A stretch of DNA of 61,957 nt from Planctomycetales bacterium. Lineage in GTDB: Bacteria > Planctomycetota > Planctomycetia > Pirellulales > S012-138. This document shows positions 1-61,957 of this stretch, in pieces; the stretch's first letter is position 1; every line of letters begins with the position of its first letter. The position numbers and the translations under genes were made by a program. Below the pieces are notes generated by a model. The model made no database searches. It worked only from the letters and a program-made list of their open reading frames with translations, and was not told the DNA's origin. The stretch is taken from the NCBI GenBank assembly GCA_015488215.1, contig WFOE01000107.1:1-61957 (forward strand). The letters are read 5' to 3'.

Positions 1-188
1 GCTTGCGACTTGCGCCGTGCGCCTTGCGCGAGGAGCTTCCGCCCCAGCGGAAATCGAAGCGTTCCTGTTCGTACTCGTGCTCGTCCTTGTCATTCGTAAT
101 CGGCAGCTCGTTATCGCTGCTTGAGAATCGGCCCTCGGCGAGCCGGAGGCGTCAACTTCCGGAGAAACGCGACGAGCAAGCGTTTCCC
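1..188 (+). repeat. Modular intergenic repeat locus A (truncated by window start): heptamer cassette - mini-hairpin - hexamer cassette - REP-like hairpin - spacer
   Basis: 1-30 gcttgcgacttgcgccgtgcgccttgcgcg matches 26018, 50011 and the reverse complement at 49109 and 61885. Mini-hairpin 32-45; TCGTRC hexamers ~68-101; REP-like GGCGAG-CCGGAGGC-GTCA-ACTTCCGG-AG at 137-164. Confidence 0.9.
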
Positions 189-350
189 GTTGTCAAGACA
201 ACGCCCCTAAGTACTCAGCCAATACTCTTTGAGCATACTCGGAGACGATTCTACTCGCCGGGGGATCACCCCTTCCGCATCTGCTCAAAAACGAATTGGT
301 AGCCACAGTGTTTCGAGCAAAAAGTCTCCCGGGCGCCACAAGTGGGTTTT

Positions 351-1202
351 TTATTCCTCTTCCAGCTTTTTCAACAGGCGGCCTAGGTATTCATGGGCTT
401 CCGCGGCGGCCCGGTCCGGCTGGTCGATATAGGGGTAAAGCTCCACGGTCAGCCAGCCCTGGTATCCGCTGTCGCGAATGGCCCGGAGCGTGGCTTCAAA
501 GTCAATGGCCCCGTGCCCGGGAATCAAATGCTGGTGGACCCGCGTGGCAGCGATGTCTTCCAGGTGATAGTGCTTCGTGTGCGCAGCCATTCGGGCCACC
601 CAGTCCTGCGGGTCCTGGCCCACGCAGTAGGCGTGTCCTATATCGAAGTTCAAGCCCACCCAGGGCGAATCGATTCGGGCAACAAACTCCTCGTATTGCT
701 CGAAGCGTTCGATGAGCAGTCCCGGCTCCGGCTCGATGAGCAGCAGCACCTGGACTTCTTCGGCCACTTCGACACAGGGCATCAGTTCGTCGTAGAACGT
801 GCGGGCGGCGTCGGCCCAGCTTTGCCCCGGCTCCAGCGGCCCGCCCGGCTCGGTGGTGATGTTCGGCGCACCCAGTTCCCGCGCCAGCCGCAGCGCCCGT
901 TTCGTATGCTCGCGGCGGATGGCCCGATAGTGCGGATGCTCAATCCAGGATGGGTGCCAGTACGGCTGCCGCGGATCGGCCACGGCGTTCATCATAAAGG
1001 CGTTGATATTGGAAATCTCAAGCCGGTGTTCTTCCAACGCGCGGCGGATTCGCTCCTTTTGCTCGGGCAGCAGTCCGGCGGGCCAAGCGTGGGGTACGTC
1101 GGCCAGCAGCTCGATTCCCTCGTAGCCGGCCTGGACAATGCGGCGGATGGTTTCCTCAATAGAAAAATTGAGATACGCGTTAGAACTGAAAGCCAGCTTC
1201 AT
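351..1202 (-). CDS. Sugar phosphate isomerase/epimerase, xylose-isomerase-like TIM barrel
   Basis: 283 aa ORF with GYEGIEL, LLIEPEP, NFDIGH, HYHLED, H..PGHGAIDF and VELY metal-binding motifs of the AP-endonuclease-2 barrel family. Confidence 0.85.
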   Translation of the reverse strand: MKLAFSSNAYLNFSIEETIRRIVQAGYEGIELLADVPHAWPAGLLPEQKERIRRALEEHRLEISNINAFMMNAVADPRQPYWHPSWIEHPHYRAIRREHTKRALRLARELGAPNITTEPGGPLEPGQSWADAARTFYDELMPCVEVAEEVQVLLLIEPEPGLLIERFEQYEEFVARIDSPWVGLNFDIGHAYCVGQDPQDWVARMAAHTKHYHLEDIAATRVHQHLIPGHGAIDFEATLRAIRDSGYQGWLTVELYPYIDQPDRAAAEAHEYLGRLLKKLEEE

Positions 1203-1278
1203 AAAATACCTCGACCGGCAGGCGCAACGGCGGATTGAAAACGGCGATTTTAGACGTTTGTTAGACGTTCATCAGAAA

Positions 1279-10252: not shown

Positions 10253-10330
10253 GGAGCTTCGGCTCCGAGGCGGGAATCCACGCCGATTCTTGCAAGGGGA
10301 GAGCCGTCTTTTTGCAACGGGAGAGCCGTC
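10253..10330 (+). repeat. Degenerate repeat locus B: mini-hairpin + linker + REP-leader remnant with ~19-bp direct duplication
   Basis: GGAGC-TTCG-GCTCC at 10253-10266, then cgccgattcttgca as at 50220; ttgcaa(g/c)gggagagccgtc at 10290 and 10312. Confidence 0.6.
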
Positions 10331-25893: not shown

Positions 25894-25959
25894 GCGGGTA
25901 ACAATTGCCCTTTGAGCAAGCCCAGGTGGCGGAGCTCGGGACATCGGACAAACCGCCGG

Positions 25960-26412: not shown

Positions 26413-26440
26413 CGGGATTGCTCGTGTCGAAAGCGGCCGT

Positions 26441-36867: not shown

Positions 36868-36954
36868 TTCCCGTTCCGACGCTTTCCCTGGCGCCAGCGG
36901 CGCGTTTCAATAGGGGCGTTCCCTAATGGCGTGTCGTGTGTGGAACGTCCCGAC

Positions 36955-37377: not shown

Positions 37378-37386
37378 AAGCCGACC

Positions 37387-37884: not shown

Positions 37885-37926
37885 ACTTCCGTTGTCCCGT
37901 ATTCCATGGCACGGCTACAGCCACGG

Positions 37927-38316: not shown

Positions 38317-38559
38317 AATGGAAGCCACCCACTTTCGTCGGCAAGGTCGGTACTGCTTCCCGGGAACAAAAGCACAAACCGGCCGGAGAAACTTCGCCTT
38401 GATCCGGAGTTGCGGGTTCCCTATGATTCGCCCCGGCGCAGTCTCCCGCGCCCGCGTTGCGCGCCGATTGCGCCCGCTGCCGGCACGGGCCGTGCCGGCC
38501 GGACCCAGCCCCGCTGCGTTTGGCAAGGATTGCCCGCTCCCCGACAGGACCCGGCACGG

Positions 38560-41739: not shown

Positions 41740-41814
41740 ATCGGAGAGGTCGTCTGCGCTGCCGAAAGCACGGGGGGCCGTCGTGCGTTCCAGACCGCAG
41801 TGTTCCTGCGCCGA

Positions 41815-42423
41815 CTACCCGGCCGAAGGCTTCTTCCACCACGTGGGCAGCGACCAGCCGGGCAAGCGGATGCGGAACCAGGAGCGCTTTTCCTCTGCGG
41901 CTCCGGAGGCCCGCACCCAGCTTGGACGACTGCCTCGGAGCACGGGTGCCTGGGGCCGCGCGGCCACCTGCGAAAGCAGCGGCAGCCGGGCAGGGGTTCG
42001 GGCCGTGCCGTCGGCTTGGGCAGGCGGGGGCGGGACCGGCGCTTGCGGCTGGGACTCCTCGACCTGCTCTGGGACGGGCTCTTCCACCTGCTCGGGAATC
42101 GGCGCAAGCGGCACTTCCTGACAGCAGCCTGCATGGCACCGATGCAACTTGGGCAGCCAGCCCAACGTAATGCCGCAGTGAACCTTCTGCCAGAAGCGGC
42201 GCCAGTGAGCGTAATGGGCGGCCCGCTCCGCACAATAGCCGGCCCACAGCCCCGGACTGCGGCACGGATCGCACGCGCAAGCTCCGGGCGTGGCAAACCA
42301 GGGGTCGTGTGCCGCGGGAGCAAAACCGGGCTCGGCCAGGGGCAGTTCCGCGGCCGAGCCACCGCCGGCTGGTGCGGCGGCCCACAACACTCCGGCCAAC
42401 ATTCCGACGATTGCCGCTTTCAT
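41815..42423 (-). CDS. Hypothetical secreted Cys-rich / Pro-rich protein
   Basis: MKAAIVGMLAGVLWAAAPAGG signal; CACDPC..LWAGYC..C..CHAGCC; PEQVEE tandem repeat. Confidence 0.55.
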   Translation of the reverse strand: MKAAIVGMLAGVLWAAAPAGGGSAAELPLAEPGFAPAAHDPWFATPGACACDPCRSPGLWAGYCAERAAHYAHWRRFWQKVHCGITLGWLPKLHRCHAGCCQEVPLAPIPEQVEEPVPEQVEESQPQAPVPPPPAQADGTARTPARLPLLSQVAARPQAPVLRGSRPSWVRASGAAEEKRSWFRIRLPGWSLPTWWKKPSAG

Positions 42424-42704
42424 CGTGGGGCTCCTGTACCACTGGCAAGGGGGAAAGCTCAGCACCGCTCCGGCTCGACGGCGGGAGCAAGCTCCGCTGG
42501 GGGAGATTTTGCCCACTCTGGCTAATCAACCATGCCCGCGCTGTTGCCAAAGGCAAACACAATTTGTCGATTTTCGGCAACAGGGTGCGTTTCGCCCGGG
42601 GGAAGAATCCCTACAATCGGCACCACAGTCCTTCGGTTGCTTGTTTGAGACGGTAAAGAACCCTCCTAAGTGGCTACTGAGCAGAAGCGGATGGCGTGGT
42701 CCCC

Positions 42705-42974
42705 GGCGAGCCGCCAGCTTTGCGAGCCGCCAGCTTTAGCTGGCGGAGGGCGGCACGGTGGTCGTCGACTGGGTGCTTCCGCACCGAAGGGCGTGGGGGC
42801 TTGGAGGCTTGGGGGCTTGAGGCGGAGCTTCCGCTCCGATGGGAGAATAAGCGCCAATTCCTGCAACCGGCGAGCCGGGGACTTTAGTTCCCGGAGGCAA
42901 ACAACGCGCAAGCGTTTTTCTCCGGACCTCCCCGGACTGAAGTCCGGGGCTCGCCATGAAGTCCGGGGCTCGCC
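42705..42974 (+). repeat. Modular intergenic repeat locus E
   Basis: Half + full REP 42705-42748; hairpins 42772 and 42824 around a GGGGCTTG octamer cassette; inverted REP doublet 42869-42896 / 42928-42955; half-REP duplicate 42957-42974. Confidence 0.93.
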
Positions 42975-43032
42975 GAAGCGCCGGCAGAGCCGTGTGCTGA
43001 TTTGCTCAAAAACTATTGCTCAGGTACTTGGC

Positions 43033-43962
43033 ATGACCTCTTGGGAACCGTTTGCCTGGCTGGCCGTGGCGTTCCTGGCGGCTGCCTGCGGCCTGACGCT
43101 TGCCGCCCGGGGCAAGCTCCGGGACACCACGTTGCTTTGGCCGTGGGTCTGGGCCGTACCGGTTCCGGCCGTTTGGGCCGGGGTGGTGTTGTGGGCCGTA
43201 ACGAACCGCCCTCCGGCCGAAGCCGTCTTGCCCTGGCGCTACGCCGCCGGGGTGTTTTCCCTGGCTCCGGCCATCAGTCTGCTGGGCGTGCGCCGCCCGC
43301 ATCATCGCGCCTGGCAGTGGGTCGTTCTGTCGCTGGTAGGCGTGTTGTTTCTCCCGCTGGGGCACTGGGCCTTGGGAGGCGGCTTTTCAGGGCTGCGGCT
43401 GCACTGGCTCTGGCAGAGTTTTTTGCTGGTGTTGCTGACTCTGGGATGGCTTCACTACGGATGGACGCCCCATGCTCCGGCGGCCCTGCTAGTCGTGGTG
43501 GCGCAAGGGCTGTGGCTGTTTCCGGTGTTGGGTCCGCGGTCCTGGCACGCCGCTGGGTGGTTGGACCACCTGGGCGGGATGGCTCTGGCTTCGCTATTGC
43601 TAGGTGCGGCCGTGGCGTGGAGCTGGCTGCGAACCGGGCGAAGTGCGGGCAGGTCCTGCTCCTCGTCCGGCGTCCCTGGCCTTCTTGGCGGCGTTGAACG
43701 GTTGCTTTGTGATTTTCGCTTGTGGTTTGGCGATTTCTGGTTCCAGCGGTTACGCTGGCAGGTGATGTTGGCCGCTCAACGCGCCGGCTGGCCCGTGACG
43801 ATTACTCCCACGGGCCGTTTGATTGTGGAACGCACGGCGGCCGAGTCGGGGGGATGGGAGCAAGCTTTGCAAACCGGCGTCGAACAGTTCCTCAGGCGGT
43901 TCGTCGGCCGAGAGTGGATCCAGCGACGCGTTTCCCCGCACGAGAACCAGGCGCCCCGATGA
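43033..43962 (+). CDS. Hypothetical polytopic membrane protein
   Basis: 7-8 hydrophobic segments; LLGVRRPHHRAWQWVVLSL; ATGA overlap with the phosphatase gene. Confidence 0.7.
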   Translation: MTSWEPFAWLAVAFLAAACGLTLAARGKLRDTTLLWPWVWAVPVPAVWAGVVLWAVTNRPPAEAVLPWRYAAGVFSLAPAISLLGVRRPHHRAWQWVVLSLVGVLFLPLGHWALGGGFSGLRLHWLWQSFLLVLLTLGWLHYGWTPHAPAALLVVVAQGLWLFPVLGPRSWHAAGWLDHLGGMALASLLLGAAVAWSWLRTGRSAGRSCSSSGVPGLLGGVERLLCDFRLWFGDFWFQRLRWQVMLAAQRAGWPVTITPTGRLIVERTAAESGGWEQALQTGVEQFLRRFVGREWIQRRVSPHENQAPR

Positions 43963-45269
43963 CCCAACCCCAACTGCTTGTCCCCGGCGATCTGGAGCTG
44001 CTGCACCGCCAGCGCCAGGCCCTGCAACGCTTGTTGGAACTGACCGGCACGCTGGCCCACCAGGTCCACCTGGACCAGACGCTGGAGAGCATCACGCAAC
44101 TGGCCTGCCAGGCGCTGGATTGCGAACGGGCCACGCTCTACCAGTACGATCCGGACCGGCAGGAGCTGGTCAGCCGGGCCGCCACGGAGCTGGAAATCCC
44201 GGAAATCCGCCACCGCCTGGGCGAAGGCATCTCCGGCTACGTGGCCCAGACCCGCCAGGTACTGCACGTGCCCGATGTGCATCGCGACCCTCGCTGGAGC
44301 GACCAGGTAGACCGCCGCACCGGGTTTCAGACCCGGTGTGTGCTAGCCGCCCCGATTGTCTCGCCCCGGGGCCAGTTGCTGGGCGTGTTGCAGGTGTTGA
44401 ACAAGCGAGGCTGCTCCTTCGAGCCGTTCGATGAGCAGTTGATTACCGCCTTCTGCCAGCACGCGGCCACGGCGTTAGAGCGGGCCCAGATGATCCAGGA
44501 AATGCGGCGTCAGGAAGCCGTGCAAGCCTCGCTGGAAGTGGCTCGCACGGTGCAGCGCTCGTTCATGCCCAAGCAACTCCCCCGCCTGCCCGGTTACGAG
44601 CTGGTCTATTGGTGGTATCCCCACCAGCACGTGGGCGGTGATTATCTGGACATCATCCCCTTGTCGGAAGAAAAAACGCTGCTGGTCATGGCCGACGTAA
44701 GCGGGCATGGGCTGGGACCGGCCCTGTTGATGGCTTCGGTTCGGGCGGCGCTTCGGGCTCTGGTAACCCAACACCACCGGCCGGACGAGCTGCTTATGCT
44801 ACTGAACCGCTCGCTGGCGGCCGACTTGCAAGATGGTCGTTTCGTCACCATGGTATTGGCCGTGTTGGACGTGCGAACCAACCAGGTGGAGTTTGCCAAC
44901 GCCGGGCACGGACCGGCGCTGCACTACCGGGCTGCCGAAGACCGTTTCGACGTGCTCGAAGCGACCGGATTGCCCCTGGGTGTGATGGAGGACGTCCCCT
45001 ACGAGACAGGTCCCCCGTGCCACATGGCCCCCGGCGACTTGCTGCTGCTTTGTACCGACGGGATCGTCGAAGCCCAAAACACCCAGGGCAAGGAGTTCAA
45101 ACTCGCCGGGCTCAAGCAGCTCATTCGCCAGACGGCTCCCCAGGGCGTCCGGGCCGTGGTGGACCAGATTGCAGAGCGGATGCGGGACTACTTCGTGGAC
45201 GAACAGCCGCAGGACGACCTGACCGTGCTGGCCCTCGGCCGTCTGGCGGATGCGGCTGGTGGGCCGTAG
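43959..45269 (+). CDS. GAF + SpoIIE/RsbU PP2C-type phosphatase
   Basis: GAF (GEGISGYVA..DRRTGFQTRCVLAAPI..QVLNK); VGGDYLD, ADVSGHG, NAGH, TDGIVE, QDDLT. Confidence 0.93.
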   Translation: MTQPQLLVPGDLELLHRQRQALQRLLELTGTLAHQVHLDQTLESITQLACQALDCERATLYQYDPDRQELVSRAATELEIPEIRHRLGEGISGYVAQTRQVLHVPDVHRDPRWSDQVDRRTGFQTRCVLAAPIVSPRGQLLGVLQVLNKRGCSFEPFDEQLITAFCQHAATALERAQMIQEMRRQEAVQASLEVARTVQRSFMPKQLPRLPGYELVYWWYPHQHVGGDYLDIIPLSEEKTLLVMADVSGHGLGPALLMASVRAALRALVTQHHRPDELLMLLNRSLAADLQDGRFVTMVLAVLDVRTNQVEFANAGHGPALHYRAAEDRFDVLEATGLPLGVMEDVPYETGPPCHMAPGDLLLLCTDGIVEAQNTQGKEFKLAGLKQLIRQTAPQGVRAVVDQIAERMRDYFVDEQPQDDLTVLALGRLADAAGGP

Positions 45270-45309
45270 CAACCGGCCGGTCCGGCCCTCTGCTGAAGAA
45301 AGACTTGCC

Positions 45310-47043
45310 ATGAACCAATCCAACCGCGTTGACGAAGAACGCCAACTGTTGCTCCAGGCCCAGCAACGCGGCCCGTTGGCCACGCTTGCCGCCTGGGTGC
45401 GTCTTTCCGGCCCGGGGTGGCTGCAAAGCGCGATTACTCTGGGGGGCGGCTCGCTGGCCAGCAGTCTTTACCTGGGCGTGCTGGCCGGCGTGGGCCTGCT
45501 GTGGCTGCAACCGCTGGCGATGGCCTTGGGCATCGTCATGCTGGGGGCCATCGGCTACGTGACGCTCTCCACGGGACAGCGACCGTTCCGGGCCATCAAC
45601 CAATATGTAAACCCGGTGCTGGGCTGGAGCTGGGCCCTGGCCTCCCTGGCGGCCAGCATGGTCTGGTGCCTGCCGCAGTTTTCGCTGGCCACCGGCGTGT
45701 TGCAACAGAACCTGGCCCCAGGGCTGCTGGGACCCGAGGGCCCCCTGGGCGATACGGCCGCCAAGGGACTCATCGCCGCCGTAATCCTGGTGGTGACGGT
45801 GGCCATCACCTGGAGCTACGATTCGGGCCGCTGGGGCATCCGGCTCTACGAGCTGGTGCTCAAGCTGATGGTGGGCCTGATTGTGGTCTGCTTCGTGGGC
45901 GTGGTTTGGGTGCTCCGCAGCCAGTTGGACTGGGGAGAGATTGGGGCCGGGTTTATCCCCGACCTGCGCCGCATCTTCCAACCGGCCCCCGCCTTGCAGC
46001 CTTTGCTGGACCAGATTGCCGAACCGGGCCGAAGCTACTGGGTGCGGCAGATTGTCGCGGCCGGACGCGATACGCTGGTCAGCGCCGCAGCCACGGCCGT
46101 GGGAATCAACATGACGTTTCTGTTCCCTTACTCGCTCCTGCGCCGCGGCTGGACGCGAGAGTTCCGCGGCCTGGCCATCTTCGACCTGGCCACGGGGATG
46201 TTCATCCCCTTTGTGCTGGCCACCAGTTGCGTCATCATTGCCGCGGCCGCCCGATTCCACGGACAGCCGGTCCCAGGACTGGTGGCCGAAGACCGCACCG
46301 CGCCAGGCCGCAAGCCTTCCCCGGCCGAGCAGCGGGAGTATCGCTCGCTGCTGCTGGGCCGCTTGGCCCAGGACCTGCCCGAGGAAGAACTGGCCCGGTT
46401 GAAGCAAAACCCCGCTGCTCTGGAGCAGCGGCTGCGCCAGCTTCCGCTGGCTGAACGCCGCCTGGCCGCCACGCTGGTGAAACGGGACGCCTACGCCCTG
46501 GCCCAATCGCTGGCCGAGCTGGTCGGGCGGCAGGGGGCGCACTGGATTTTCGGGCTGGGGGTGCTGGGGATGACCCTCTCCACGATTACGCTGCTGATGC
46601 TCATCTCCGGGTTTGTCGTCTGCGAGATGTTCGATCTGCCCCAGGGCGGCTGGTCGCACCGGCTCGGCTCGCTGTTGGCGGGCGTGGGTGCGTTGGGGCC
46701 GTTTATCTGGGGCAAGGCGTCGTTTTACCTGGCAGTGCCGACTTCGGTGTTCGGTTTCATCTTGTTGCCGATTGCGTACCTGACGTTTTTCTTTCTGATG
46801 AACCAACCTCGGCTGCTGGGAGACGACATGCCCCGGGGATTCCGCCGCCTGGTGTGGAACCTGCTCATGGGCGTGGCCGCCACGGTAGCCACGGTGGCCA
46901 GCGTAACGATGGTCTGGGTCAAAGCGGGTCGGTGGGGGATTGCGGCCGTGGTGGGGCTGGTCCTGCTGGCCCTGGTGGTGCAGGTGGCCAGGCGAGGCCG
47001 CCCGATTCCGCCCCCTGCGGCCCAGGAAGAAACCTCCTCGTAG
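45310..47043 (+). CDS. NRAMP-like divalent metal cation transporter
   Basis: SGPGWLQSAITLGGGS, AVGINMTFLFPY; about 11-12 TMs. Confidence 0.8.
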   Translation: MNQSNRVDEERQLLLQAQQRGPLATLAAWVRLSGPGWLQSAITLGGGSLASSLYLGVLAGVGLLWLQPLAMALGIVMLGAIGYVTLSTGQRPFRAINQYVNPVLGWSWALASLAASMVWCLPQFSLATGVLQQNLAPGLLGPEGPLGDTAAKGLIAAVILVVTVAITWSYDSGRWGIRLYELVLKLMVGLIVVCFVGVVWVLRSQLDWGEIGAGFIPDLRRIFQPAPALQPLLDQIAEPGRSYWVRQIVAAGRDTLVSAAATAVGINMTFLFPYSLLRRGWTREFRGLAIFDLATGMFIPFVLATSCVIIAAAARFHGQPVPGLVAEDRTAPGRKPSPAEQREYRSLLLGRLAQDLPEEELARLKQNPAALEQRLRQLPLAERRLAATLVKRDAYALAQSLAELVGRQGAHWIFGLGVLGMTLSTITLLMLISGFVVCEMFDLPQGGWSHRLGSLLAGVGALGPFIWGKASFYLAVPTSVFGFILLPIAYLTFFFLMNQPRLLGDDMPRGFRRLVWNLLMGVAATVATVASVTMVWVKAGRWGIAAVVGLVLLALVVQVARRGRPIPPPAAQEETSS

Positions 47044-47077
47044 CCGTTTCCCGTGCCTGGTCGTCGAAGGTGCTGCC

Positions 47078-47878
47078 ATGCAACTTGTTCCCGTGGCCGA
47101 TACGCAACTGGCCGTGCTCCAGCAAGGAGAAGGTCCCCCGGTGCTGCTGGTGCACGGGTTTCCGCTGGACCATTCCATGTGGAAGTACCAAATCGAACAT
47201 CTGGCTCGTACCCATCGGGTCATCGCCCCGGACTTGCGCGGGCTGGGGCAAAGTCCCGTGGCCGGATCGCCCGTGACGATGGAACGCTTTGCCGACGATT
47301 TGGCCTTGCTGCTTGAGGCCCTGGGGGTGCAGCAGCCCGTGCTTTACTTGGGGCTTTCTATGGGCGGCTATATCGCCTGGGAGATGCTGCGCCGCCACCG
47401 GCAGCGACTGCGCGGGCTGGTGCTTTGCGACACCAAAGCCCAGGCCGACACGCCCGAAGCAGCCCAGGCACGCCGCCAGATGGCCGAAACAATCCTCCGC
47501 CAAGGGATGCAGCCGCTAGAGCAAGCGATGCGGCAAAAGCTCTGGGCCCCCCACAGCACCACCCGGCGCGATGAGGACCTGGAACATGTGCAGCAGGTTA
47601 TCGCCCGGACCAATCCCCGAGGAGCCGCCGCGGCCCTGCTGGGCATGGCCCAACGAGCCGACGCCACGGAGTTGCTCCCCCGGATCGACTTGCCGGTGCT
47701 GGTCGTCTGCGGGGAGCAGGACGTGCTTTCCCCGCCGGAACAGATGGAAGCGATGGCCCGGGCCATTCCCGGTGCCCACTTTGCGCTGATTCCTCAGGCT
47801 GGCCACATGGCCCCGCTGGAAAACCCTGCAGAGGTCAACGCCCGGTTGGACCGCTTCGTGCAGTCGCTAGATAACTGA
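47078..47878 (+). CDS. Alpha/beta hydrolase (3-oxoadipate enol-lactonase-like)
   Basis: LVHGFP, DLRGLG, GLSMGG nucleophile, GEQD, AGHMAPLE. Confidence 0.92.
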   Translation: MQLVPVADTQLAVLQQGEGPPVLLVHGFPLDHSMWKYQIEHLARTHRVIAPDLRGLGQSPVAGSPVTMERFADDLALLLEALGVQQPVLYLGLSMGGYIAWEMLRRHRQRLRGLVLCDTKAQADTPEAAQARRQMAETILRQGMQPLEQAMRQKLWAPHSTTRRDEDLEHVQQVIARTNPRGAAAALLGMAQRADATELLPRIDLPVLVVCGEQDVLSPPEQMEAMARAIPGAHFALIPQAGHMAPLENPAEVNARLDRFVQSLDN

Positions 47879-48004
47879 CCGCCGAAATACCACTGCCACA
47901 GAGACAATCCGGTTGGCATCCGGGGGCGGATGGAAAACAATGACTTGCCGGAACCCTTTACCGGCATCGCCGCCAGCCGGACGAACCCGTTTGAAGGAAC
48001 TCCG

Positions 48005-48835
48005 ATGATCCCGCTTTACGACAACATCCCCTCGCGCACTACGCCGTGGGTCAACTACCTGATTGTGGCGCTGACCACCCTGGTGTTCGGCTTGCAATTG
48101 CTGGACCAGTACAACGACAACCGCTGGCAACTGGTCGAACGGTTCGGCATGGTGCCGCAGCGGGTGTTGCACCCGGGCACGACCGTGGTGATGGATGTGC
48201 CGCAAGTGGTCGCCACGCCCCTGGGGCCGCGGGTGGTACGGGTGCAGAAGGTCATCCCGCCAGCGGCGGTGCCGGAGTGGCTGACTCTGCTAACCTGCAT
48301 CTTTTTGCACGGGGGGTGGATGCACTTTCTGGGCAATATGTGGTTTCTCTACATCTTCGGGGACAACGTAGAAGACCGCCTGGGCCACGCTGGGTTTTTG
48401 ATCTTCTACCTGGCAAGCGGCGTGTTGGCCAGCGCGGCCCATCTGGCAGCCAATCCGGATTCGCCGGTACCCACCATCGGCGCCAGCGGAGCAATCGCCG
48501 GGGTGATGGGAGCCTATTTCATCTTTTATCCCAAGGCCCAGGTCGTCGCCCTGATTCCGTTGTTTTTCATCTTCTATTCGGTGGTGCTGCCGGCGCCGGT
48601 GTTTTTGGGCTTTTGGTTCTTCATTCAGTTCTTTCAAGGGATTGGTTCGATTACCGCGGGCCAAAGCGGCGGTGTGGCCTGGTGGGCCCATATTGGCGGG
48701 TTCGTCGTGGGGATGCTGGTGGCCCGCTCGCTCATCCCCACCCGGCTGACTCGTCCGCCGGTAACAGAGCGCCGCCCCGGAACCGAACGCATCGGTATCT
48801 ACCGCTACCGCCCGCGGTATCCCATGGGCCCATAG
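48005..48835 (+). CDS. Rhomboid family intramembrane serine protease
   Basis: MIPLYDNIP, FLHGGWMHFLGNM, GDNVED, IGASG, WAHIGG. Confidence 0.95.
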   Translation: MIPLYDNIPSRTTPWVNYLIVALTTLVFGLQLLDQYNDNRWQLVERFGMVPQRVLHPGTTVVMDVPQVVATPLGPRVVRVQKVIPPAAVPEWLTLLTCIFLHGGWMHFLGNMWFLYIFGDNVEDRLGHAGFLIFYLASGVLASAAHLAANPDSPVPTIGASGAIAGVMGAYFIFYPKAQVVALIPLFFIFYSVVLPAPVFLGFWFFIQFFQGIGSITAGQSGGVAWWAHIGGFVVGMLVARSLIPTRLTRPPVTERRPGTERIGIYRYRPRYPMGP

Positions 48836-48888
48836 GAAGTCAACCGGTAGAGTCTTTCAGCGCCGGCGGACGCTGATGTTCCGCACCT

Positions 48889-49236
48889 AGCGAGCCCCGG
48901 ACTTCAGTCCGGGGAGAGCCGATTGAAAGAAAAGGCTTTTTCTTGCGGTGGTGCGGAAGCACCAATCGCCGACGGCCGTGCCGTCCTCCGCCAGCTAAAG
49001 CTGGCGGCTCGCCGTTTGCGAAAATCAGCGATTGTTCTCGCATTGGTGCGGAAGCGCCTCGCTCAAGACCCAAGACGCAAGACCCAAGACCTGTAGAGCA
49101 AAAGCTCCCGCGCAACAGCGCACGGCGCAAGCCGCAAGCCGATTCCCGCCCAGCGAGCCCCGGACTTCAGTCCGGGGAGACAAGAAGAAACGCTTTTGGT
49201 AAGTTTTTCTCCGGGAGCTGAAGCTCCCGGCTCGCC
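48889..49236 (-). repeat. Modular intergenic repeat locus F, between convergent genes
   Basis: REPs at 48889(+), 48986(-), 49152(+) and 49209(-); hairpins 48950, 49045 and 49095; CAAGAC(C/G) heptamers 49061-49091; GCGCAAG heptamers 49109-49140. Confidence 0.93.
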
Positions 49237-49276
49237 GGTTTGACACGTCGGGGCGGTCGGTCCCCCGTGACCGAGG

Positions 49277-49825
49277 CTACTTTTTCGGCGGGCGATAGGC
49301 CACGAGGCGCTGGGGGTTGGTTTCCAGCGTGGGTCCCCCGATCAACTCGATGCAGTACGGTATGGCCGGAAACACCGCATCGAGACACTCGGCAATCGCC
49401 CGCGGTTGGCCCGGCAGGTTCACAATCAGTGTGTTGCCTCGGGTGCCGGCCGTCTGGCGGGAGAGGATGGCCGTGGGCACTTTTTCCAGCGAGACTTTGC
49501 GCATCAGCTCGCCGAAGCCCGGCAACAGCTTTTCGCAAACCGCTTCGGTCGCCTCGGGCGTGATGTCCCGGGGAGCAGGTCCCGTGCCGCCCGTGGTAAC
49601 CACCAGCGCACAGCGGTGCTGGTCGCACAGTTCCACCAGCGTTTGTTCCAGCACAGGCCGCTCGTCGGGGACGATTCGCCGCAGGGGTTCCCAGGGGGTG
49701 AGCAGCACCTGTTGCAGGTACTCCACGATGGCCGGGCCGCTGCGGTCTTCGTACTGGCCCTCGCTGGCCCGATCCGAAGCGGTCACAATCCCAATCCGTA
49801 CCGTGGTGGAACTATCCTGGTTCAT
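49277..49825 (-). CDS. mog: Molybdopterin adenylyltransferase
   Basis: IGIVTASDRAS.GQYEDRSG, TTGGTGPAPRDITPEAT, LPGFGELMR, AILSRQTAG, NLPGQP, AIPYC. Confidence 0.96.
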   Translation of the reverse strand: MNQDSSTTVRIGIVTASDRASEGQYEDRSGPAIVEYLQQVLLTPWEPLRRIVPDERPVLEQTLVELCDQHRCALVVTTGGTGPAPRDITPEATEAVCEKLLPGFGELMRKVSLEKVPTAILSRQTAGTRGNTLIVNLPGQPRAIAECLDAVFPAIPYCIELIGGPTLETNPQRLVAYRPPKK

Positions 49826-49939
49826 CTAGGGCCGTCCGAAACACGAGAGGGAACCACGATTCTCTGAAACCCATCTCTGAAACCCACGCTGCTCATTGTG
49901 TCCCTGTCGGGGCAAAGCAACAAGCCTGCAGCGGAGAAA

Positions 49940-50264
49940 GGGCTTGGGGGAGTAAGGGGATGAAGCCGTGGGGACGTGGAGGGGGTGCTTCCGCTCCGGG
50001 GCGAGAATCGGCTTGCGGCTTGCGCCGTGCGCCTTGCGCGGTGCTTCCGCACCAGCGGGAAAAACGCTCGCACTCGTGCTCGTACTCGTAATCGTAATCG
50101 GCAGCTCGTTAACGGCAATCGCGAATCGGCAACCGGCGAGCCGCCGACTTGGAGAGGTCTTGCGTCTTGGGTCGTGTGTCTTGAGCAGGTGCTTCCGCAC
50201 CGATGCGAGAAGAAAGAATCGCCGATTCTTGCACTCGGCGAGCCGGAAGTTTCACTGCCCAGAG
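49940..50264 (+). repeat. Modular intergenic repeat locus G (contains all four tandem cassettes)
   Basis: Octamer cassette; hairpin 49984; GCTTGCG cassette 50010; hairpin 50040; hexamers 50067-50101; half-REP 50135-50150; GCGTCTT cassette 50156; hairpin 50188; degenerate REP 50237-50264. Confidence 0.92.
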
Positions 50265-50278
50265 ATAGGGGAGAGCCG

Positions 50279-51220
50279 TCAACTGCCCGAGGCGGTGCGG
50301 CTCGAATGCGGATGGGCCGCCTGGTAGGCGCGGAGCAACTGGGCCGTGGAGACGTGCGTATAAATCTGTGTGGTGGCCAGGCTCTTGTGGCCCAGCAGTT
50401 CCTGCACGCTGCGGATGTCCGCTCCGGCATCCAGCAGATGCGTAGCGAAGCTGTGCCGCAGCGTATGGGGCGAGGTACGCCGGTCCAGTCCGGTGATTTT
50501 GAGGTACTTTTCCAGCATCCGGGCCACGCTGCGGGTGGTGAGCCGCCGGCCAAAGCGATTGACAAACACCGGGGCAGCGGGTCCCTGGGGCACGTCCGGG
50601 GCCAGCGTGCGCACCTTCAGGTAATCCCGCAGGGCCTGCTGGGCGTAGGAACCCAAAGGAGCCAAGCGTTCGCGGCGTCCCTTGCCGCGCACGCGAAGCA
50701 ACGAACCGGCGAAGTCCAGGTCGCCGTCGTTCAGTCCGACCACTTCGCTCACGCGCAAGCCCGCCGAATACATCACTTCCAGGATGGCCCGATCCCGGAG
50801 TCCCAGCGGCGTGTCGGTCGGAGGAGCTTCCAGCAGTCGGGCCACCTCCTCGGTGGAGAGGAAGTGGGGCAGTTTGCGCTGCGGCCGGGGATTGCGCAGC
50901 GCCTTGGCCGGGTTCGTGCGGCACCAGCCTTGCAGAATCGCGTAGCGGAAGAAGCTACGCACCGCGGCCAATCGCCGGGCGATGGTCGAGCGAGCGTAGT
51001 GTTGCTCGTGCAACTGGCCCAGGTAGCCGCGCAAGTCCACCGCCGTAATCTGATCCACCGCGGGCTCCTGACCGAATTGCTGGGTAAGGTAGTCCAGCAG
51101 ATGGGTCAGGTCTTCGCGATAGCTTTTCACCGTCAATTGGGAAGCGTTCCGCTGGGCGGCCAGAAACTGCAAAAACCGCCCTGTGGCTTCTTGCAGCGCA
51201 GGGGCACTTGCCGTGGACAT
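50279..51220 (-). CDS. xerC: Tyrosine recombinase XerC
   Basis: TVKSYREDL, RRLAAVRSFF, RDRAILE.MYSAGLRVSE, GKGRRER, HTLRHSFATHLL, LLGH, TQIYTH catalytic residues. Confidence 0.88.
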   Translation of the reverse strand: MSTASAPALQEATGRFLQFLAAQRNASQLTVKSYREDLTHLLDYLTQQFGQEPAVDQITAVDLRGYLGQLHEQHYARSTIARRLAAVRSFFRYAILQGWCRTNPAKALRNPRPQRKLPHFLSTEEVARLLEAPPTDTPLGLRDRAILEVMYSAGLRVSEVVGLNDGDLDFAGSLLRVRGKGRRERLAPLGSYAQQALRDYLKVRTLAPDVPQGPAAPVFVNRFGRRLTTRSVARMLEKYLKITGLDRRTSPHTLRHSFATHLLDAGADIRSVQELLGHKSLATTQIYTHVSTAQLLRAYQAAHPHSSRTASGS

Positions 51221-51251
51221 GGCCCGGACTCCCCAGGGGGCACGGGCCCGC

Positions 51252-51497
51252 TTAGAGCAGCTCGTCTTCGGGCGGGAGCACGGCCTTGATGCGCGAAGGG
51301 GGCGCAGCGGGCTTGGGCTCGCTGCGGCGAATCTTCTGGCTCAGCACCGCGGCGTCGTACCAGGTGAGACTCAGTTCCGGGTTGGACGCATAGCGGCCCA
51401 GCACCCGCAGCACTTCCCGGCGGTTCTCGTCGTTGTAGAGAAAGATGTAGCGTTCCTTCCCTTTGACCAGGGCCAGGACGTTGATGTCTTGTTGCAC
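51252..51497 (-). CDS. Small hypothetical protein (81 aa)
   Basis: GGAGG RBS before the GTG; DINVLALVKGKERYIFLY..LGRYASNPELSLTWYDAAVLSQKIR. Confidence 0.8.
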   Translation of the reverse strand: MQQDINVLALVKGKERYIFLYNDENRREVLRVLGRYASNPELSLTWYDAAVLSQKIRRSEPKPAAPPSRIKAVLPPEDELL

Positions 51498-58850: not shown

Positions 58851-58873
58851 CCCGCTCAAAAAACCGAACTGCC

Positions 58874-59293: not shown

Positions 59294-59300
59294 CCCGGCA

Positions 59301-61442
59301 ATGCTCGTCGCCGTAGCTGTTCCGGCTTCGGTGCCCCTGTGGCTGTGGGTCATCTGGGCCCTATTGGGCCTGGTGAGCCTGGCGTTGCTGGTCGTGTTGC
59401 TTACTCCCTGGGGGCGTTCGCGGCCGCTGCGCAAATGCGTGCTAATTTCGCTGATGGTCCACGCGCTGCTGCTGACCTATGCGGCCACGGTGAAGATTCT
59501 GAGCGGCTACCGCGGCGTCCCGCAGGAAGAGATGGCCATTCGCATCGTGGACATTTCGACCGAACCGGAACCAGAATCCGCTCGGCAACCAGGCGAGCCG
59601 CAGCCCTGGGAACAGATGGACGAACCCCCGCCGCAGTTGCCCGCGGACATGCCCCGGCGCGAAGTGCCCCCGGCCGCAGAACCCGGTGCACCGGAGCGTC
59701 GGGCCGCGGAGCGGCAAGGCGCTAAGAGAACTCCCGTTCCGCCAGCTCCGGCGGCGAAGGAAACTTCCCCGGAAGAACCTCCTCCGCCGAAGGAATTGCC
59801 GCTGGCCGAACCCGTGCCGAAGCGCCCCGTCGCCTCGGCCCCCGCCCAGGCCACTCAGGCGCCGCAAGTGTCGGAGCCCAAGCGGCCGGCTCAGCCACCG
59901 GAGCTTCAGACGCCCAAGGAAGCCTTGCCCGGGCCGCCGCCCCACCGGGCCCGGCTGGAACCTTCCCCCGGCCAAGCCGCCGTGGTGCAACAGCACCCCG
60001 GGCCGGTGCTACCGGAGCTGAAGACTTCTCCGGAAGCGGAGCTGCTCCAGGGGCAGCTTCCCGCCGGCGGAAGCGAGTTGCCCGTTCCCCGATTCGACGC
60101 CCCGGGACCGCAGGCCCCCAGCGCTGCCGAACTGGTGCAGCAACACCGGCCGGAACGCTCCCCCCCAGCGACACCTCGACTCATCCGGCGCCGCAAGCCA
60201 GCGGCGATTGCCCAGGGAGAACCGGAGCCTGAACCCTCGGCCGATGAGCTCAAGCCGCTTCGGCCACTTGTGCCGGTACGGCTGGAACGCCCCGAGCAGG
60301 AGCCGCTCGCTGGGAAAGCCTCCCCGCTGGATGCTTCGCTTGCCCTGCGGACCGACCCCCAGCGGATGCAGCGCGTGCTGGAACAAGGCGGCAACGAAAA
60401 GACCGAGCAGGCGATTCAGTTGGCCCTGGCCTGGCTGGCCGCCCAACAGCAGCCCGACGGAAGCTGGTCTGCCACCGCTCATGGCGGAGGGCGCGATTTG
60501 CGCACGCTGGGCCAGGCTCGGCCCAAGGCCGGCACCCGAGCCGAAACGGGCATCACCGGGCTGGTGTTGCTGGCGTTTCTGGGAGCCGGACACACGCACG
60601 CTCGCGGGCCTTACAAGCAGAACATCGCCCGAGGGTTGGACTACTTGCTTGCTCAGCAGGACCGCAGCAGCGGCTCGCTCTCGGGCCGCGCCACGCTTTA
60701 CGCGGCCATGTATTGCCACGGCATGGCCACGCTGGCCCTGGCCGAAAGCTACCTGATGACCGGCGATCCCCGGTTGAAAGAACCGCTGCGGCGGGCCGTC
60801 GGCTACACGCTGAAAGCCCAACACCCCTACACCGGCGGTTGGCGCTACCGGGTCGGCGACGCCCTGGGGGACACCAGCCAGTTGGGCTGGCAGTTGATGG
60901 TGCTGCACTGTGGTCGCATGGCCCGAGTGCAGGATAGCCCCCTGGCGTGGCAGCGGGCCGGGTGGTTTCTGCGCTCGGTTTCTTCCGGCCGCCGCGGAGG
61001 GCTGGCCGCTTACCAGGTGGGCCATCGCCCCTCCCCGACGATGACCGCCGAGGCCCTCTTTTGCCGCGTGCTGCTGGGCACTCCGGCCGACGACCCGGCC
61101 TTGCAAGAAGCGGCCGACTATCTCATGGACCACCTGCCCCGACAAACCGAGCCGAACTTCTACTACTGGTACTACGGCACGCTAGGGCTGTATCACTTGC
61201 AGGACGAACACTGGCGGCGGTGGAACCAGACGCTGGTGCGGACCCTGCTGGCCCTGCAAGAACAGCACGGTCCCCAGCGTGGGAGCTGGACTGCCCGTTC
61301 GGCCTGGGGAGGCTACGGCGGTCGGGCCTTTACGACCGCGCTGGCCGTCATGTCGCTGGAAGTCTATTACCGCTACGTGCCGGCTTATGCTCAGGCCCCG
61401 GGCAAACGGGCCGCCCGAGGGCCCGGCCTGCTGCGGCGCTAG
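59301..61442 (+). CDS. Membrane-anchored TonB/TolA-like protein (SxxxH TM, Pro-rich linker) with C-terminal prenyltransferase/squalene-cyclase-like alpha/alpha barrel
   Basis: TM2 LISLMVHALLL; about 260 aa Pro/Glu-rich linker; QW repeats WLAAQQQPDGSW, YLLAQQDRSSG, LKAQHPYTGGWRY and LLALQEQHGPQRGSW; YYWYYGT. Confidence 0.85.
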   Translation: MLVAVAVPASVPLWLWVIWALLGLVSLALLVVLLTPWGRSRPLRKCVLISLMVHALLLTYAATVKILSGYRGVPQEEMAIRIVDISTEPEPESARQPGEPQPWEQMDEPPPQLPADMPRREVPPAAEPGAPERRAAERQGAKRTPVPPAPAAKETSPEEPPPPKELPLAEPVPKRPVASAPAQATQAPQVSEPKRPAQPPELQTPKEALPGPPPHRARLEPSPGQAAVVQQHPGPVLPELKTSPEAELLQGQLPAGGSELPVPRFDAPGPQAPSAAELVQQHRPERSPPATPRLIRRRKPAAIAQGEPEPEPSADELKPLRPLVPVRLERPEQEPLAGKASPLDASLALRTDPQRMQRVLEQGGNEKTEQAIQLALAWLAAQQQPDGSWSATAHGGGRDLRTLGQARPKAGTRAETGITGLVLLAFLGAGHTHARGPYKQNIARGLDYLLAQQDRSSGSLSGRATLYAAMYCHGMATLALAESYLMTGDPRLKEPLRRAVGYTLKAQHPYTGGWRYRVGDALGDTSQLGWQLMVLHCGRMARVQDSPLAWQRAGWFLRSVSSGRRGGLAAYQVGHRPSPTMTAEALFCRVLLGTPADDPALQEAADYLMDHLPRQTEPNFYYWYYGTLGLYHLQDEHWRRWNQTLVRTLLALQEQHGPQRGSWTARSAWGGYGGRAFTTALAVMSLEVYYRYVPAYAQAPGKRAARGPGLLRR

Positions 61443-61612
61443 CACGTGCCGGAGAAGAGGCTCCCCTTCGGCAACGTCGGGACTGAGCTTCCTGCTTGTG
61501 TACCGTAAAGCCCGGGTAAAGTATCCAGCCAGGGGGCTTTGCGTACATGGGCAGATGATTCGCCCGGTGATTCGACTTCCCGTTAGTGTGTGTTCGGTTT
61601 GTTTTTGCCACT

Positions 61613-61957
61613 GGCAAGCCCCGGACTTCGGTTCGGGGAGATGAGAGGAAACGGTCTTTTGTGACTTTTCTCCGGGAGCTAACACTCACGGCTCGCCGAG
61701 TGCCGATTGCGACTCTACACGCTCGTTTATTCTTGCCTCGGAGCGGAAGCTCCCAGTGGTCACGGCCCGGCCGCCTCCGCCGACTGAAGTCGGCGGCTCG
61801 CTGAGTGCGATGAGCGATAACGAGCTGCCGATTCCGAATCGAGTACGAGCACGAGCGTTTGTTTTCCGCTGGTGCGGGAGCACCCGCGCAAGGCGCACGG
61901 CGCAAGCCGCAAGCCTATCCTCGCCCGGAGCGGAAGCTCCCCTCCAAGCCCCCACAC
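61613..61957 (-). repeat. Modular intergenic repeat locus H (truncated by window end)
   Basis: Inverted REP doublet 61613/61670; hairpin 61740; REP 61775; hexamers ~61828-61857; hairpin 61871; heptamer cassette 61885-61915; hairpin 61927; octamer cassette 61941-end. Confidence 0.92.

Follow-up and report, generated by a model that had tools for sequence, protein, structure and literature searches.

The repeats described here are probably a genus-restricted, highly amplified family of non-coding mosaics of the REP/BIME type, spread by a mechanism that we infer to combine Y1-RAYT transposition with tandem duplication. The family is a more elaborate relative of the enterobacterial REP/BIME repeats. 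The window, that is, the whole stretch of 61,957 nt that was analysed, is an entire contig with both ends inside such loci. Its initial annotation had proposed eight dispersed loci built from a small kit of hairpins, linkers and short-period cassettes; reading all eight directly, we found the proposed parts in each, in orders that match apart from degenerate copies, and the reading as a dispersed mosaic family that includes a second hairpin and a small linker kit is supported. Hairpin H (GGWGCTTCCGCWCC, at most one mismatch) matches 18 times in the window against 0.31 expected, always within the eight loci, and 0 of 100 dinucleotide shuffles reached 18. The pattern of the REP-like hairpin R (GCGAGCC-N16-GGAG, at most one mismatch) matches 22 times against 4.16 expected, a number likewise reached in 0 of 100 shuffles; 15 of these matches lie in the loci, and the seven in coding sequence are read as chance.

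H, 14 nt long, folds into a hairpin with a stem of 5 bp and the loop TTCC, and is always positioned downstream of a cassette of 6-8-nt periodicity (a, c or d) or of X, an additional recurrent module formed by a small palindrome between R and H. R spans 27 nt, made up of the foot GCGAG, a stem of 8 bp (CC......), a loop of 4 nt and AG, and occurs in both directions about equally. These two hairpins are the constrained cores of the mosaic loci, and their stems carry clear compensatory changes. Positions 3 and 12 of H pair as A-T in 286 copies and T-A in 186, with A-A in 20 and T-T in 19; the R stem has at least nine variants, every one perfectly complementary, and in 120 equal-length units five stem columns hold two pair types each and are at least 97% paired (for example CG 72 / GC 46 and AU 69 / GC 44). 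R copies also form 169 convergent R-R' doublets (spacer mode 30 nt); as the two copies usually differ in stem, a doublet branches instead of folding into one long hairpin. The linker rules proposed for the window hold genome-wide: after H, AGCGGAAAA leads to b hexamers (consensus of 62 copies), GGGCGAGAAT leads to a (H to a, mean 57), and NNNGCAAGAA...TTCTTGC leads to R (L3 to R, 207). The 31-nt L3 linker, which contains a recurrent inverted repeat, is only ~70% identical between copies, marking the copies as old. All four cassettes had been taken for microsatellites, which suits b (3-7 hexamers) and d (3-7 octamers), whose unit number varies, whereas a and c are fixed blocks of four 7-nt units (four in 118 of 177 copies of c) that align with each other at 70-73% (family D3).

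Loci A to E and G are read on the plus strand, and F and H on the minus strand. Locus A (1-188), truncated on its 5' side by the contig end, runs a, H (32-45), L1, b hexamers (68-85) and R (138-164). Locus B (10253-10330) is a short decayed copy, with an H carrying one mismatch (10253-10266), a linker, an L3-like inverted repeat and two degenerate R feet (GAGAGCCG). Locus C (25956-26283) comprises d (25956-25987), L2, a (26018-26047), H (26049-26062), L1 and b (26079-26108), followed by half R (26144-26170), d (26172-26211), H (26210-26223), L3 (26227-26251) and R (26257-26283). In locus D (37927-38316), an H-like copy (37927-37940), c, H (37977-37990), c (37994-38021), H (38027-38040) and an L3-like stretch precede H (38075-38088), L1, seven b hexamers (38105-38146), R (38189-38215), an X-like module, a degenerate H, L3 (38255-38278) and a degenerate R. 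Locus E (42705-42974) is made of half R, R (42722-42748), X, H (42772-42785), d (42788-42819), H (42824-42837), L3, R (42870-42896), a palindromic spacer, R' (42928-42954) and half R'; its R/R' doublet has a branched fold as single-stranded DNA, with z -3.48 for the whole locus. Locus F (48889-49236) starts with an R-R' doublet (49153-49235), L2, a (49117-49139), c (49064-49091) and H (49045-49058) and continues with L3, R (48986-49012), X (48971-48985), H (48950-48963), L3 and R' (48890-48916). Locus G (49939-50264) reads d (49939-49962), H (49984-49997), L2, a (50011-50040), H (50040-50053), L1, b (50067-50096), half R, c (50156-50183), H (50188-50201), L3 (50208-50232) and a degenerate R (50238-50264). 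Locus H (61613-61957) opens with a d truncated by the contig end, then H (61927-61940), L2, a (61892-61914), H (61871-61884), L1, b, R (61775-61801), an X-like module, H (61740-61753), an L3-like linker, R (61670-61696), a spacer and R' (61614-61640). An independent tokenisation, whose thresholds missed or added degenerate copies, gave A a-H-L1-b-R; B H-L2-L3; C d-a-H-L1-b-d-H-L3-R; D H-H-c-H-L3-H-L1-b-R; E R-H-d-H-L3-R-R'; F(-) R-R'-a-c-H-L3-R-x-H-L3-R'; G d-H-L2-a-H-L1-b-c-H-L3; and H(-) H-L2-a-H-L1-R-H-L2-R-R'.

The assembly to which the window belongs, a fragmented MAG of 4.29 Mb in 303 contigs (96.5% complete), holds about 850-980 copies of H and about 800 of R. Exact H copies number 511; allowing one mismatch raises this to 845, where a shuffled genome gives 28. 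A perfect 8-bp stem is found in 424 R copies, and a, b and c occur 263, 115 and 177 times against 0 in shuffled regions. The family is very abundant outside the window: multi-module loci number 505, or one per 8.5 kb, and they cover at least 2.4% of the assembly (2.44%). H or R lies within 300 bp of 202 of the 606 contig ends. Between 96 and 99% of copies are intergenic (H 813/845, strict R 421/424), and loci occupy 96 of 343 convergent, 213 of 1329 tandem and 46 of 460 divergent gaps, at a median distance of 61 nt from the stop codon and 157 nt from the start codon. In tandem gaps H is co-oriented with the flanking genes in 128 cases against 42, a bias seen again in a second MAG sample (29 against 11). 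Because the copies are stop-proximal and co-oriented with transcription, these patterns point to co-transcription into 3' untranslated regions, where the copies may be tolerated or used as RNA or DNA hairpins, as known for REPs.

Among 331 genomes searched, H is confined to one genus, whose three species hold 511 (the window's genome), 1035 and 28 copies; each of the 328 other genomes holds seven at most, and R-like hairpins are also present, in low numbers, elsewhere in the order. In the three species of the genus, one orthologous gap differs in both the architecture and the orientation of its repeats. The three-species comparison yielded no definable empty-versus-filled site, since synteny is poor, and contigs from other samples break at the loci. 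The suggestion that the family is possibly undescribed agrees with the lack of any Rfam family at gathering score for the loci and of a description in the literature searched; the R part is not wholly without precedent, given the general mention of hairpins near planctomycete class 3 Y1 genes in Quentin et al. 2018 (PMC6006769). Mobilisation in trans by a RAYT, which the initial annotation had also proposed, is unsupported for the window's genome, because its assembly contains no Y1/RAYT match by PF01797, by NF047646 at E ≤ 0.1 or by tblastn with the sister species' two proteins. A Y1/RAYT homologue was not found in G001 either, so that two of the three species with the elements yielded no RAYT gene.

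The link between the repeats and Y1 transposases comes only from G002, the copy-richest sister species, which has five Y1 hits, with genes lying mostly among H/R modules; the exception, L001, has no R or H within 3.2 kb. The single-copy P0002 scores above the NCBIfam RAYT cut-off (82.9 against 80 bits) and sits between 239-bp repeats (231 identical) of an H-containing block; these flanks are direct, not inverted, which differs from the classical REPtron layout. The P0001-type gene in L002 has R hairpins in inverted orientation on both sides, and its protein carries the NHVH and W[TA] signatures. In the second MAG sample, 94 of 309 R copies belong to a subfamily with a GGTT tail, the one that flanks the G002 Y1 genes; the window's genome, which also lacks that Y1 gene, has 0 among its 522. 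Because the repeats occupy so many gaps, the flanking in G002 could be partly chance. Environmental relatives of P0002 (n=80, at most 62% identity) had no R or H nearby, and RAYT-type loci from G023 (3 of 7 hits), G010 (3 of 7) and G024 (2 of 9) had no flanking R-type hairpins.

Modules are ordered by a grammar that includes tandem duplication; they are not freely shuffled, and they do not follow a single collinear consensus. The genome-wide bigram table shows a cassette leading to H, then H to L3 and R, to L1, b and R, or to L2 and a, and R leading in turn to R', to X and H, or to the next cassette. Cassette-H-L3-R is the unit seen most often and is constant in length (n=230, identical in 120), and tandem arrays have 96-bp and 171-bp units. 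The early notion of shuffled modules goes too far. Architectures are many (361 distinct strings among 383 loci), but one order is strongly preferred: the best-fitting, d-c-a-b-x, accommodates 139 of 227 loci with at least two cassettes, where shuffling cassettes within loci gives a mean of 70 (maximum 92), and H copies share one direction in 367 of 383 loci (mixed in 16). This preferred order is also compatible with descent from a single composite master element of ~350 bp, laid out roughly (d or c)-H-a-H-b-R-(c or x)-H-L3-R-R', which would have been amplified whole like a MITE and diversified by internal deletion, truncation and tandem concatenation rather than from independent modules. Window loci C, G and H are nearly collinear, loci have blocks of up to ~340 bp in common (90-96% identity), and recombination would delete between directly repeated H copies. 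We nevertheless find such an origin rather improbable, as 88 of the 227 loci fit no single order, 42 loci repeat a cassette type, and H, preceded by a, c, d or x, leads to L1, L2 or L3 in many combinations (a-H-L1 55 times, a-H-L3 95 times). Homology between near-identical blocks stops at module edges, beyond which other cassettes follow (d and c being swapped), R stands without other modules in 100 loci, R-like hairpins occur without H in other genera, and an unsystematic look at whole loci saw no terminal inverted repeats or target duplications around them.

It is also conceivable, though unlikely, that the loci are structured sequences with a host function. They might serve as mRNA-protecting or mRNA-processing 3'-UTR hairpins, as punctuation of transcription or translation, or as DNA sites for protein binding; duplication and gene conversion would account for most of their spread and selection for their persistence, and no transposase would be required now. 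The compensatory changes in hairpins beside a poorly conserved L3, the 75% co-orientation in tandem gaps, the bias to gene 3' ends and convergent gaps, and the missing RAYT genes would all suit this. The loci, however, match no Rfam family and are not terminator-like in a consensus scan, R shows no preferred orientation, and locus G, folded whole as RNA, gains no stability over its shuffles (z -0.41). R-stem mismatches, at 40 G-T against 26 A-C (p 0.11), lack the significant G-T excess that an RNA-only constraint predicts, and the ~37-fold copy-number difference between congeners (28 against 1035) is more in keeping with selfish spread than with a conserved role in the host. That the mosaics are chimeric or collapsed repeats from metagenome assembly or binning is scarcely credible. 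The source is admittedly a fragmented MAG with one third of its contig ends within these repeats, and contigs from other runs aligned to the window give ~100-fold summed depth in repeat bins. Yet loci lie inside long contigs with ordinary genes on either side, the modules recur in assemblies of two other species and in a separately deposited MAG, unique flanks reach the locus edges in contigs from four runs and two studies, and misassembly cannot create compensatory stem changes.

BIMEs are mosaics whose linkers follow a small number of conserved motifs, and the present loci share with the enterobacterial REP/BIME repeats extragenic palindromes clustered in mosaics, a limited linker set and tandem unit amplification. 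In enterobacterial BIMEs, REPs alternate in orientation, whereas the second hairpin here is polar and gene-co-oriented; the window's genome moreover has no RAYT gene, and we know of no counterpart in BIMEs to the 6-8-nt-periodic cassettes and the 14-nt hairpin. The BOX elements of Streptococcus pneumoniae are intergenic, modular boxA-boxB(n)-boxC repeats with one order, about a hundred copies and stable secondary structures, and by description are alike in having few module types, a fixed order and one module of variable copy number; to our knowledge they include no REP-like hairpin families with covarying stems and have no RAYT link. According to PMC2817692 and PMC6006769, REP/BIME repeats are extragenic palindromes, short and rich in GC, which number in the hundreds and lie at the 3' side of transcription units, and PMC3733652 gives REP feet as GTAG or CGTC, neither of which is the GCGAG of R. 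REPINs and their RAYTs, in Pseudomonas and others, resemble this system in their inverted doublets with a short spacer, in a single-copy RAYT amid repeats, as in G002, and in large copy-number differences between related species; here, however, the doublets have unlike stems, most R copies belong to larger H-containing units, and direct repeats of a composite block lie on either side of the G002 RAYT. The available text on class 3 TnpA-Y1 (Quentin et al. 2018, PMC6006769) places these proteins mainly in Planctomycetes and Acidobacteria, with several flanking hairpins and up to ~600 copies per genome. The P0001-type protein shares their signatures and flanking hairpins, its tyrosine motif YIRAQH fits YV[VI][AENY]EQ only partly, the reported foot is CnGA against GCGAG in R, and that text contains no cassette mosaic or second hairpin.

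We therefore favour a REP/BIME-type family whose units would first have been seeded and spread as single-stranded hairpins, serving as substrates for Y1 (HUH) transposases of the RAYT type supplied in trans. Tandem duplication and deletion between H or R copies repeated in the same direction would then have diversified them. Length variation would come from slippage within b and d, and new units would join beside old ones, and together these steps could yield polar arrays with many architectures. Because the assembly holds no such transposase, the copies in the window's genome are either moved by a gene missing from the assembly or relics; if they are relics, selection keeps the hairpins and the linkers drift.

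All eight intergenic mosaic loci of the window (A to H) contain the modules assigned to them by the initial annotation, and an independent tokenisation agrees with the module orders save for degenerate copies. Clustering of repeat families in the window recovers the same pieces and aligns two of the short periodic cassettes, a and c, at 70-73%, which makes them divergent forms of a single 4 x 7-nt block. The window contains 18 copies of the 14-nt hairpin H (GGWGCTTCCGCWCC, at most one mismatch), all of them within the eight loci; only 0.31 copies are expected in the window, and none of 100 shuffles gave 18; the pattern of the 27-nt REP-like hairpin R occurs 22 times against 4.16 expected, with 15 copies inside the loci. 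Across the assembly (GCA_015488215.1, hereafter G000; 4,288,523 bp in 303 contigs, 64% GC, estimated completeness 96.5%) there are 511 exact copies of H, 845 with at most one mismatch as against 28 in the shuffled genome, and 424 copies of R with a perfect 8-bp stem after GCGAG. A module census of 482,634 bp around anchors, compared with the same regions shuffled, counted 981 H (4 shuffled), 823 R (37), 263 a (0), 115 b (0), 177 c (0), 206 d (31) and 165 copies of the small palindrome X (6). Multi-module loci number 505, or one per 8.5 kb, with a median span of 174 bp and a maximum of 707 bp. Adding the single-module loci brings the coverage to 104.8 kb, which equals 2.44% of the assembly; of its non-coding DNA, as left by a crude gene model, the loci make up about 13%. 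Both ends of the window fall within repeat loci, and a copy of H or R lies within 300 bp of 202 of the 606 contig ends of the assembly. The repeat family is thus one of the main reasons why the assembly breaks, and the copy numbers given here are minimum values. Contigs from four DNA runs (Logan) matching window positions 36900-51300 likewise end at locus edges without any spanning a locus, and the joints in their mapping are repeat matches across loci.

The evidence for constraint on the hairpins themselves is strong. H consists of a 5-bp stem with a TTCC loop, and at its third stem pair 286 copies have A-T and 186 have T-A, compared with 20 that have A-A and 19 that have T-T; in the mismatch counts of H, a subfamily whose first base is A predominates. 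R comprises a GCGAG foot, an 8-bp stem beginning with CC, a 4-nt loop (TTCA 197, TTTA 125, GTCA 57) and AG, and its stem occurs in at least nine sequence variants, each perfectly self-complementary. Among 120 units of equal length made of cassette, H, the linker L3 and R, five stem columns carry two pair types in similar numbers while remaining at least 97% paired, and the columns of the 5' foot, G(G)CGAG, are 88-99% conserved. Mismatches in the R stem (40 G-T vs 26 A-C, p 0.11) are compatible with constraint at either the DNA or the RNA level. Larger structures were also considered. Convergent doublets of R and its inverted copy R' number 169, with a modal spacer of 30 nt that is itself palindromic (GGAGAAAAA...TTTTTCTCC), and in locus E, folded as single-stranded DNA (z -3.48), the doublet forms a branched structure. 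The RNA fold of the whole of locus G is no more stable than those of shuffled sequences (z -0.41); it is the local hairpins alone that matter, not folding of the whole locus. The inverted repeat in L3 is paired in 63-92% of copies compared with 38-46% for slid partners, and a search for compensatory association among copies found none; X also pairs above slid controls, with only weak compensatory association. L3 and X were consequently dropped as proven structures, their pairing above slid controls coming without convincing compensatory change.

The modules are joined according to a syntax. A cassette or X nearly always has H as its next module (a 237, d 128, c 115, X 74), and H is succeeded by L3 (350), by b via the linker L1 (98), by R (83), by a via the linker L2 (57), by d (50) or by c (39). 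H with one left neighbour takes several right ones (after a, L3 in 95 cases and L1 in 55). After L3 comes R (207) or R' (49), after b comes R (44), and after R comes R' (127), H (79), X (78) or another R (39). The resulting loci are highly diverse: the 383 loci with at least four tokens yield 361 distinct token strings. H is co-oriented in 367 of these 383 and present in both orientations in 16. Module order is not free, however, as the shuffled kit of the initial annotation would have it: the single order d-c-a-b-x fits 139 of the 227 loci with at least two cassettes, whereas within-locus shuffles of the cassettes fit it in 70 loci on average and in 92 at most. The opposite case, in which all copies are collinear fragments of one long consensus, also disagrees with the data, given the diversity of strings and the 88 of 227 loci that depart from the best order; a cassette type is repeated in 42 loci. 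A MITE would have one consensus surrounded by terminal inverted repeats and target-site duplications; on the same counts no single consensus emerges for this family, and no empty site could be defined for it. The module syntax is therefore a grammar of hairpin-ended units, standing between a shuffled kit and a single collinear consensus.

The behaviour of whole units is part of this grammar. We identified 230 cassette-H-L3-R units, of which 120 have exactly equal length, and tandem arrays of whole units occur both in G000 (three 96-bp units of X-H-L3-R on contig C8) and in a sister species, G002 (three units of 171 bp). Blocks common to different loci at 90-96% identity stop at module edges, and beyond the edge of one such block one copy continues with a d cassette, the other with a c cassette. 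Within cassettes, the number of repeat units ranges from 3 to 7 for b and d and is mostly four for c. Judging from this anatomy, the loci would have diversified through duplication and deletion between repeated hairpins, together with slippage. A 90-bp tandem array of 2.6 units at G000:C49:9331-9560, in which H alternates with inverted H, may represent a repeat insertion inside a gene or at a gene end; it begins directly after a coding sequence resembling helicase motif VI (WQQAGRAGR). A similar array of alternating H and inverted H, with an 88-bp period, is present on contig C389 of the other sister species, G001. The 171-bp unit on contig C73 of G002 (locus L015, 900-1550) has an extra GC hairpin (CCCCCCGC-TT-GCGCGGGGGG) between a and d, and no such module was seen in the window.

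Genes were called with our own crude model of ORFs and codon use, which gives 2966 genes and 81% coding sequence; by this model, 813 of the 845 H copies with at most one mismatch and 421 of the 424 strict R copies are intergenic. Of the gaps between genes, 343 are convergent and 96 of these contain loci; the figures are 213 of 1329 for tandem and 46 of 460 for divergent gaps. The median distance of the loci is 61 nt from a stop codon (24% lie within 20 nt) vs 157 nt from a called start. In tandem gaps, H-bearing loci are oriented with the genes in 128 cases and against them in 42 (p 3e-11), and a second MAG, sampled over 408 kb, repeats the bias (29 vs 11); in convergent gaps the orientations are split 40/44. 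GC skew yielded no usable signal of replication strand: H orientation correlates with contig skew at rho 0.16 (p 0.24), and skew itself fails to follow gene strand in G000 (rho 0.04). From position and orientation only, we infer that the loci act as transcribed 3'-UTR hairpins. Terminators were rejected: a consensus scan of 14.4 kb gave 21 sites compared with 12.3 expected, one of them in a locus.

Other repeats were noticed in the same sequences. Loci A and E are each followed closely downstream (window 282-292 and 43003-43013) by another dispersed motif, CTGCTCAAAAAC-N-A-TTG...CTTAG, which recurs on contigs C1, C25, C30, C32 and others of G000. Its 11-nt core, with at most one mismatch allowed, has 208 matches in the genome, of which 95 are intergenic. 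Only 40 of 89 downstream genes share its orientation, and on contigs C52 and C84 the motif is within a duplicated block adjoining a repeat locus. The predicted gene at 33250-34297 contains a 167-nt direct repeat (33476-33642 and 33959-34125, 77% identity, 483 bp apart), which is probably an internal domain duplication.

The repeats have expanded specifically in this genus. Exact H occurs 511 times in G000 and 1035 and 28 times in its two congeners, at most three times in 28 further relatives and at most seven times in 300 other genomes of the phylum. The R-type pattern, with 418, 1065 and 29 copies in the genus, also reaches 49 and 10 copies outside it, in two further families of the order; elsewhere it has at most nine copies, and controls give at most five. 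R is therefore the older and more widespread component, H and the cassettes being a genus-level elaboration. A scan of the sequence collection for H followed by L3 returned, among the matches listed, 80 of 81 from one MAG, and a Pirellulales MAG unrelated to G000-G002 contains a lone, isolated H-like site (L084). The complete genome G023, which belongs to a different family of the order, has 49 copies of inverted doublets that resemble R (GGCGAGCCGG.AGCGT.AGCG.CCGGAG; the single unit is not a perfect hairpin), and they flank ordinary genes, as at locus L116 (G023:C1:123300-125700); one gene flanked in this way was considered as a transposase and rejected, as it resembles a Cu/Zn superoxide dismutase. 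Within the genus, DNA searches of window 24500-27800 and 36900-51300 against G001 and G002 gave no clean empty site that could be set against a filled one; the flanking genes lie on separate contigs there, at 65-87% identity, and the gap of locus G is the only comparable one. This gap contains d-H-a-H-b-R-c-H-L3-R in G000, a short a-like-H...R' in G001, and three tandem 171-bp units in opposite orientation in G002, implying extensive turnover since speciation.

The initial annotation had envisaged mobilisation in trans and a Y1/HUH gene flanked by the modules. No such gene is found in G000; the sister species G002 has five Y1 genes. In G000, an assembly 96.5% complete that breaks at repeats, no Y1/RAYT gene matched PF01797 (E at most 0.01) or NF047646 (E at most 0.1), the best tblastn hit to the G002 protein P0001 had an E value of 1.1, and a protein search with P0002, also of G002, returned nothing; in G001, too, no Y1/RAYT gene was found. 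A search for a hidden mobiliser among 46 single genes lying between loci less than 2 kb apart in G000 revealed none that recur among themselves, and two of the 46 belong to large paralogous families. The five Y1 genes of G002 are one P0002 and four of the P0001 type. P0002 is single-copy, carries the motifs PDHIH, WQ and YVRWNPV, exceeds the cut-off of the NCBIfam model for REP-associated tyrosine transposases (82.9 vs 80 bits), and its gene is bracketed by two direct copies of a composite block that contains H, the copies being identical at 231 of 239 positions. Downstream, this gene has a small A-run/T-run hairpin of its own. P0001-type proteins have NHVH, WT and YIRAQH and score 50 bits against the same model. 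One P0001-type gene (locus L002) has R hairpins on both sides, direct upstream and inverted downstream, and one of the five Y1 loci is without R or H nearby. Copies of R adjoining P0001-type genes bear a GGTT tail, and this subfamily, which contributes 94 of the 309 copies of R in the sample of the second MAG but none of the 522 in G000, tracks the presence or absence of the gene. Both gene types (L005 1426-1890 and L002 1450-2010) have a GC content of 51-53% vs 65% for the genome, the reference being the 408-kb MAG sample that we assume to represent G002; this composition suggests a foreign origin or unusual constraints. Given how dense the repeats are, their flanking of the G002 genes is weak evidence of a link. 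A metagenome scan with P0002 retrieved 80 loci at no more than 62% identity, none flanked by R or H and four with sporadic single pattern matches, and no R hairpins flank RAYT-type genes at six sampled loci of the genomes G023, G010 and G024. Mobilisation of the units by Y1 transposases is what we infer.

How the system relates to known ones depends on how strictly the classes are drawn. A CRISPR array can be ruled out, as it would have identical repeats and unique spacers, whereas here the sequences between hairpins are modules recurring at hundreds of loci. Rfam gave no match at the gathering score over the whole window on both strands. R is a short stem-loop palindrome, and R and H are both extragenic and high in copy number, as in REPs. 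According to Di Nocera et al. 2013 (PMC3733652), REPs bear a conserved tetranucleotide foot that is unpaired and reads GTAG or CGTC; the foot of R is conserved but differs in sequence, G(G)CGAG. A cognate RAYT flanked by the repeats in the same genome is present in G002 but not found in G000. R-R' doublets match REPINs, which consist of two inverted REPs with a short conserved spacer, and as in BIMEs the mosaic has few linkers (L1, L2, L3 and X, with fixed neighbours) and a variable number of units, including tandem arrays. In BIMEs the REPs alternate in orientation, as R does in its doublets (R leads to R' 127 times), but R also leads to R 39 times, and H is co-oriented in 367 of 383 loci. 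The polar second hairpin, the periodic cassettes and the transcription-aligned orientation set the G000 system apart in kind from described BIMEs. Strict membership in the REP/BIME class thus fails on two tested points, the foot and the RAYT in G000. The defining behaviour is nevertheless there: covarying palindromes with a foot, hundreds of extragenic copies, inverted doublets and linker mosaics, as well as tandem amplification, lineage-specific expansion and RAYT-type genes among the repeats of the richest congener. GTAG-tagged REPs are reported from the PVC group (Di Nocera et al. 2013, PMC3733652), and Planctomycetes class 3 Y1 genes are described as surrounded by hairpins with a CnGA foot, P0001-type proteins sharing two of the three class 3 signatures given there (Quentin et al. 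2018, PMC6006769). The initial annotation had considered the system possibly undescribed, and we found no description of the mosaic in searches of the literature on RAYT/REP/BIME and on intergenic repeats in Planctomycetes and Rhodopirellula.

A more radical reading, to which we give rather little credence, is that H-units (periodic cassette, 14-nt hairpin and L3) form a second kind of hairpin element, separate from REPs and previously unrecognised. These units are strictly polar, form head-to-tail arrays, are oriented with transcription, and flank the canonical RAYT of G002 as direct repeats. If this were true, strand-specific copy-out/paste-in of the IS200/IS605 type would add units beside existing hairpins or, alternatively, an RNA-level function would select their orientation; either way, the loci would be a two-hairpin, two-transposase mosaic pairing R with a class-3-like Y1 gene and H with a canonical RAYT.

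To our knowledge, work on REP/BIME systems has been confined almost entirely to Proteobacteria. A REP/BIME-like assignment of the family widens their scope to Planctomycetota and to a richer syntax, in which fixed connectors join two covarying hairpins and periodic cassettes. The family also accounts for the fragmented assemblies in this lineage, a third of contig ends being inside repeats. With 28, 511 and 1035 copies of H in three congeners and RAYT-type genes found only in the richest, the genus bears on whether such repeats persist and keep their structure after loss of the transposase, and their marked orientation relative to transcription makes them well suited to telling selfish spread apart from use by the host.
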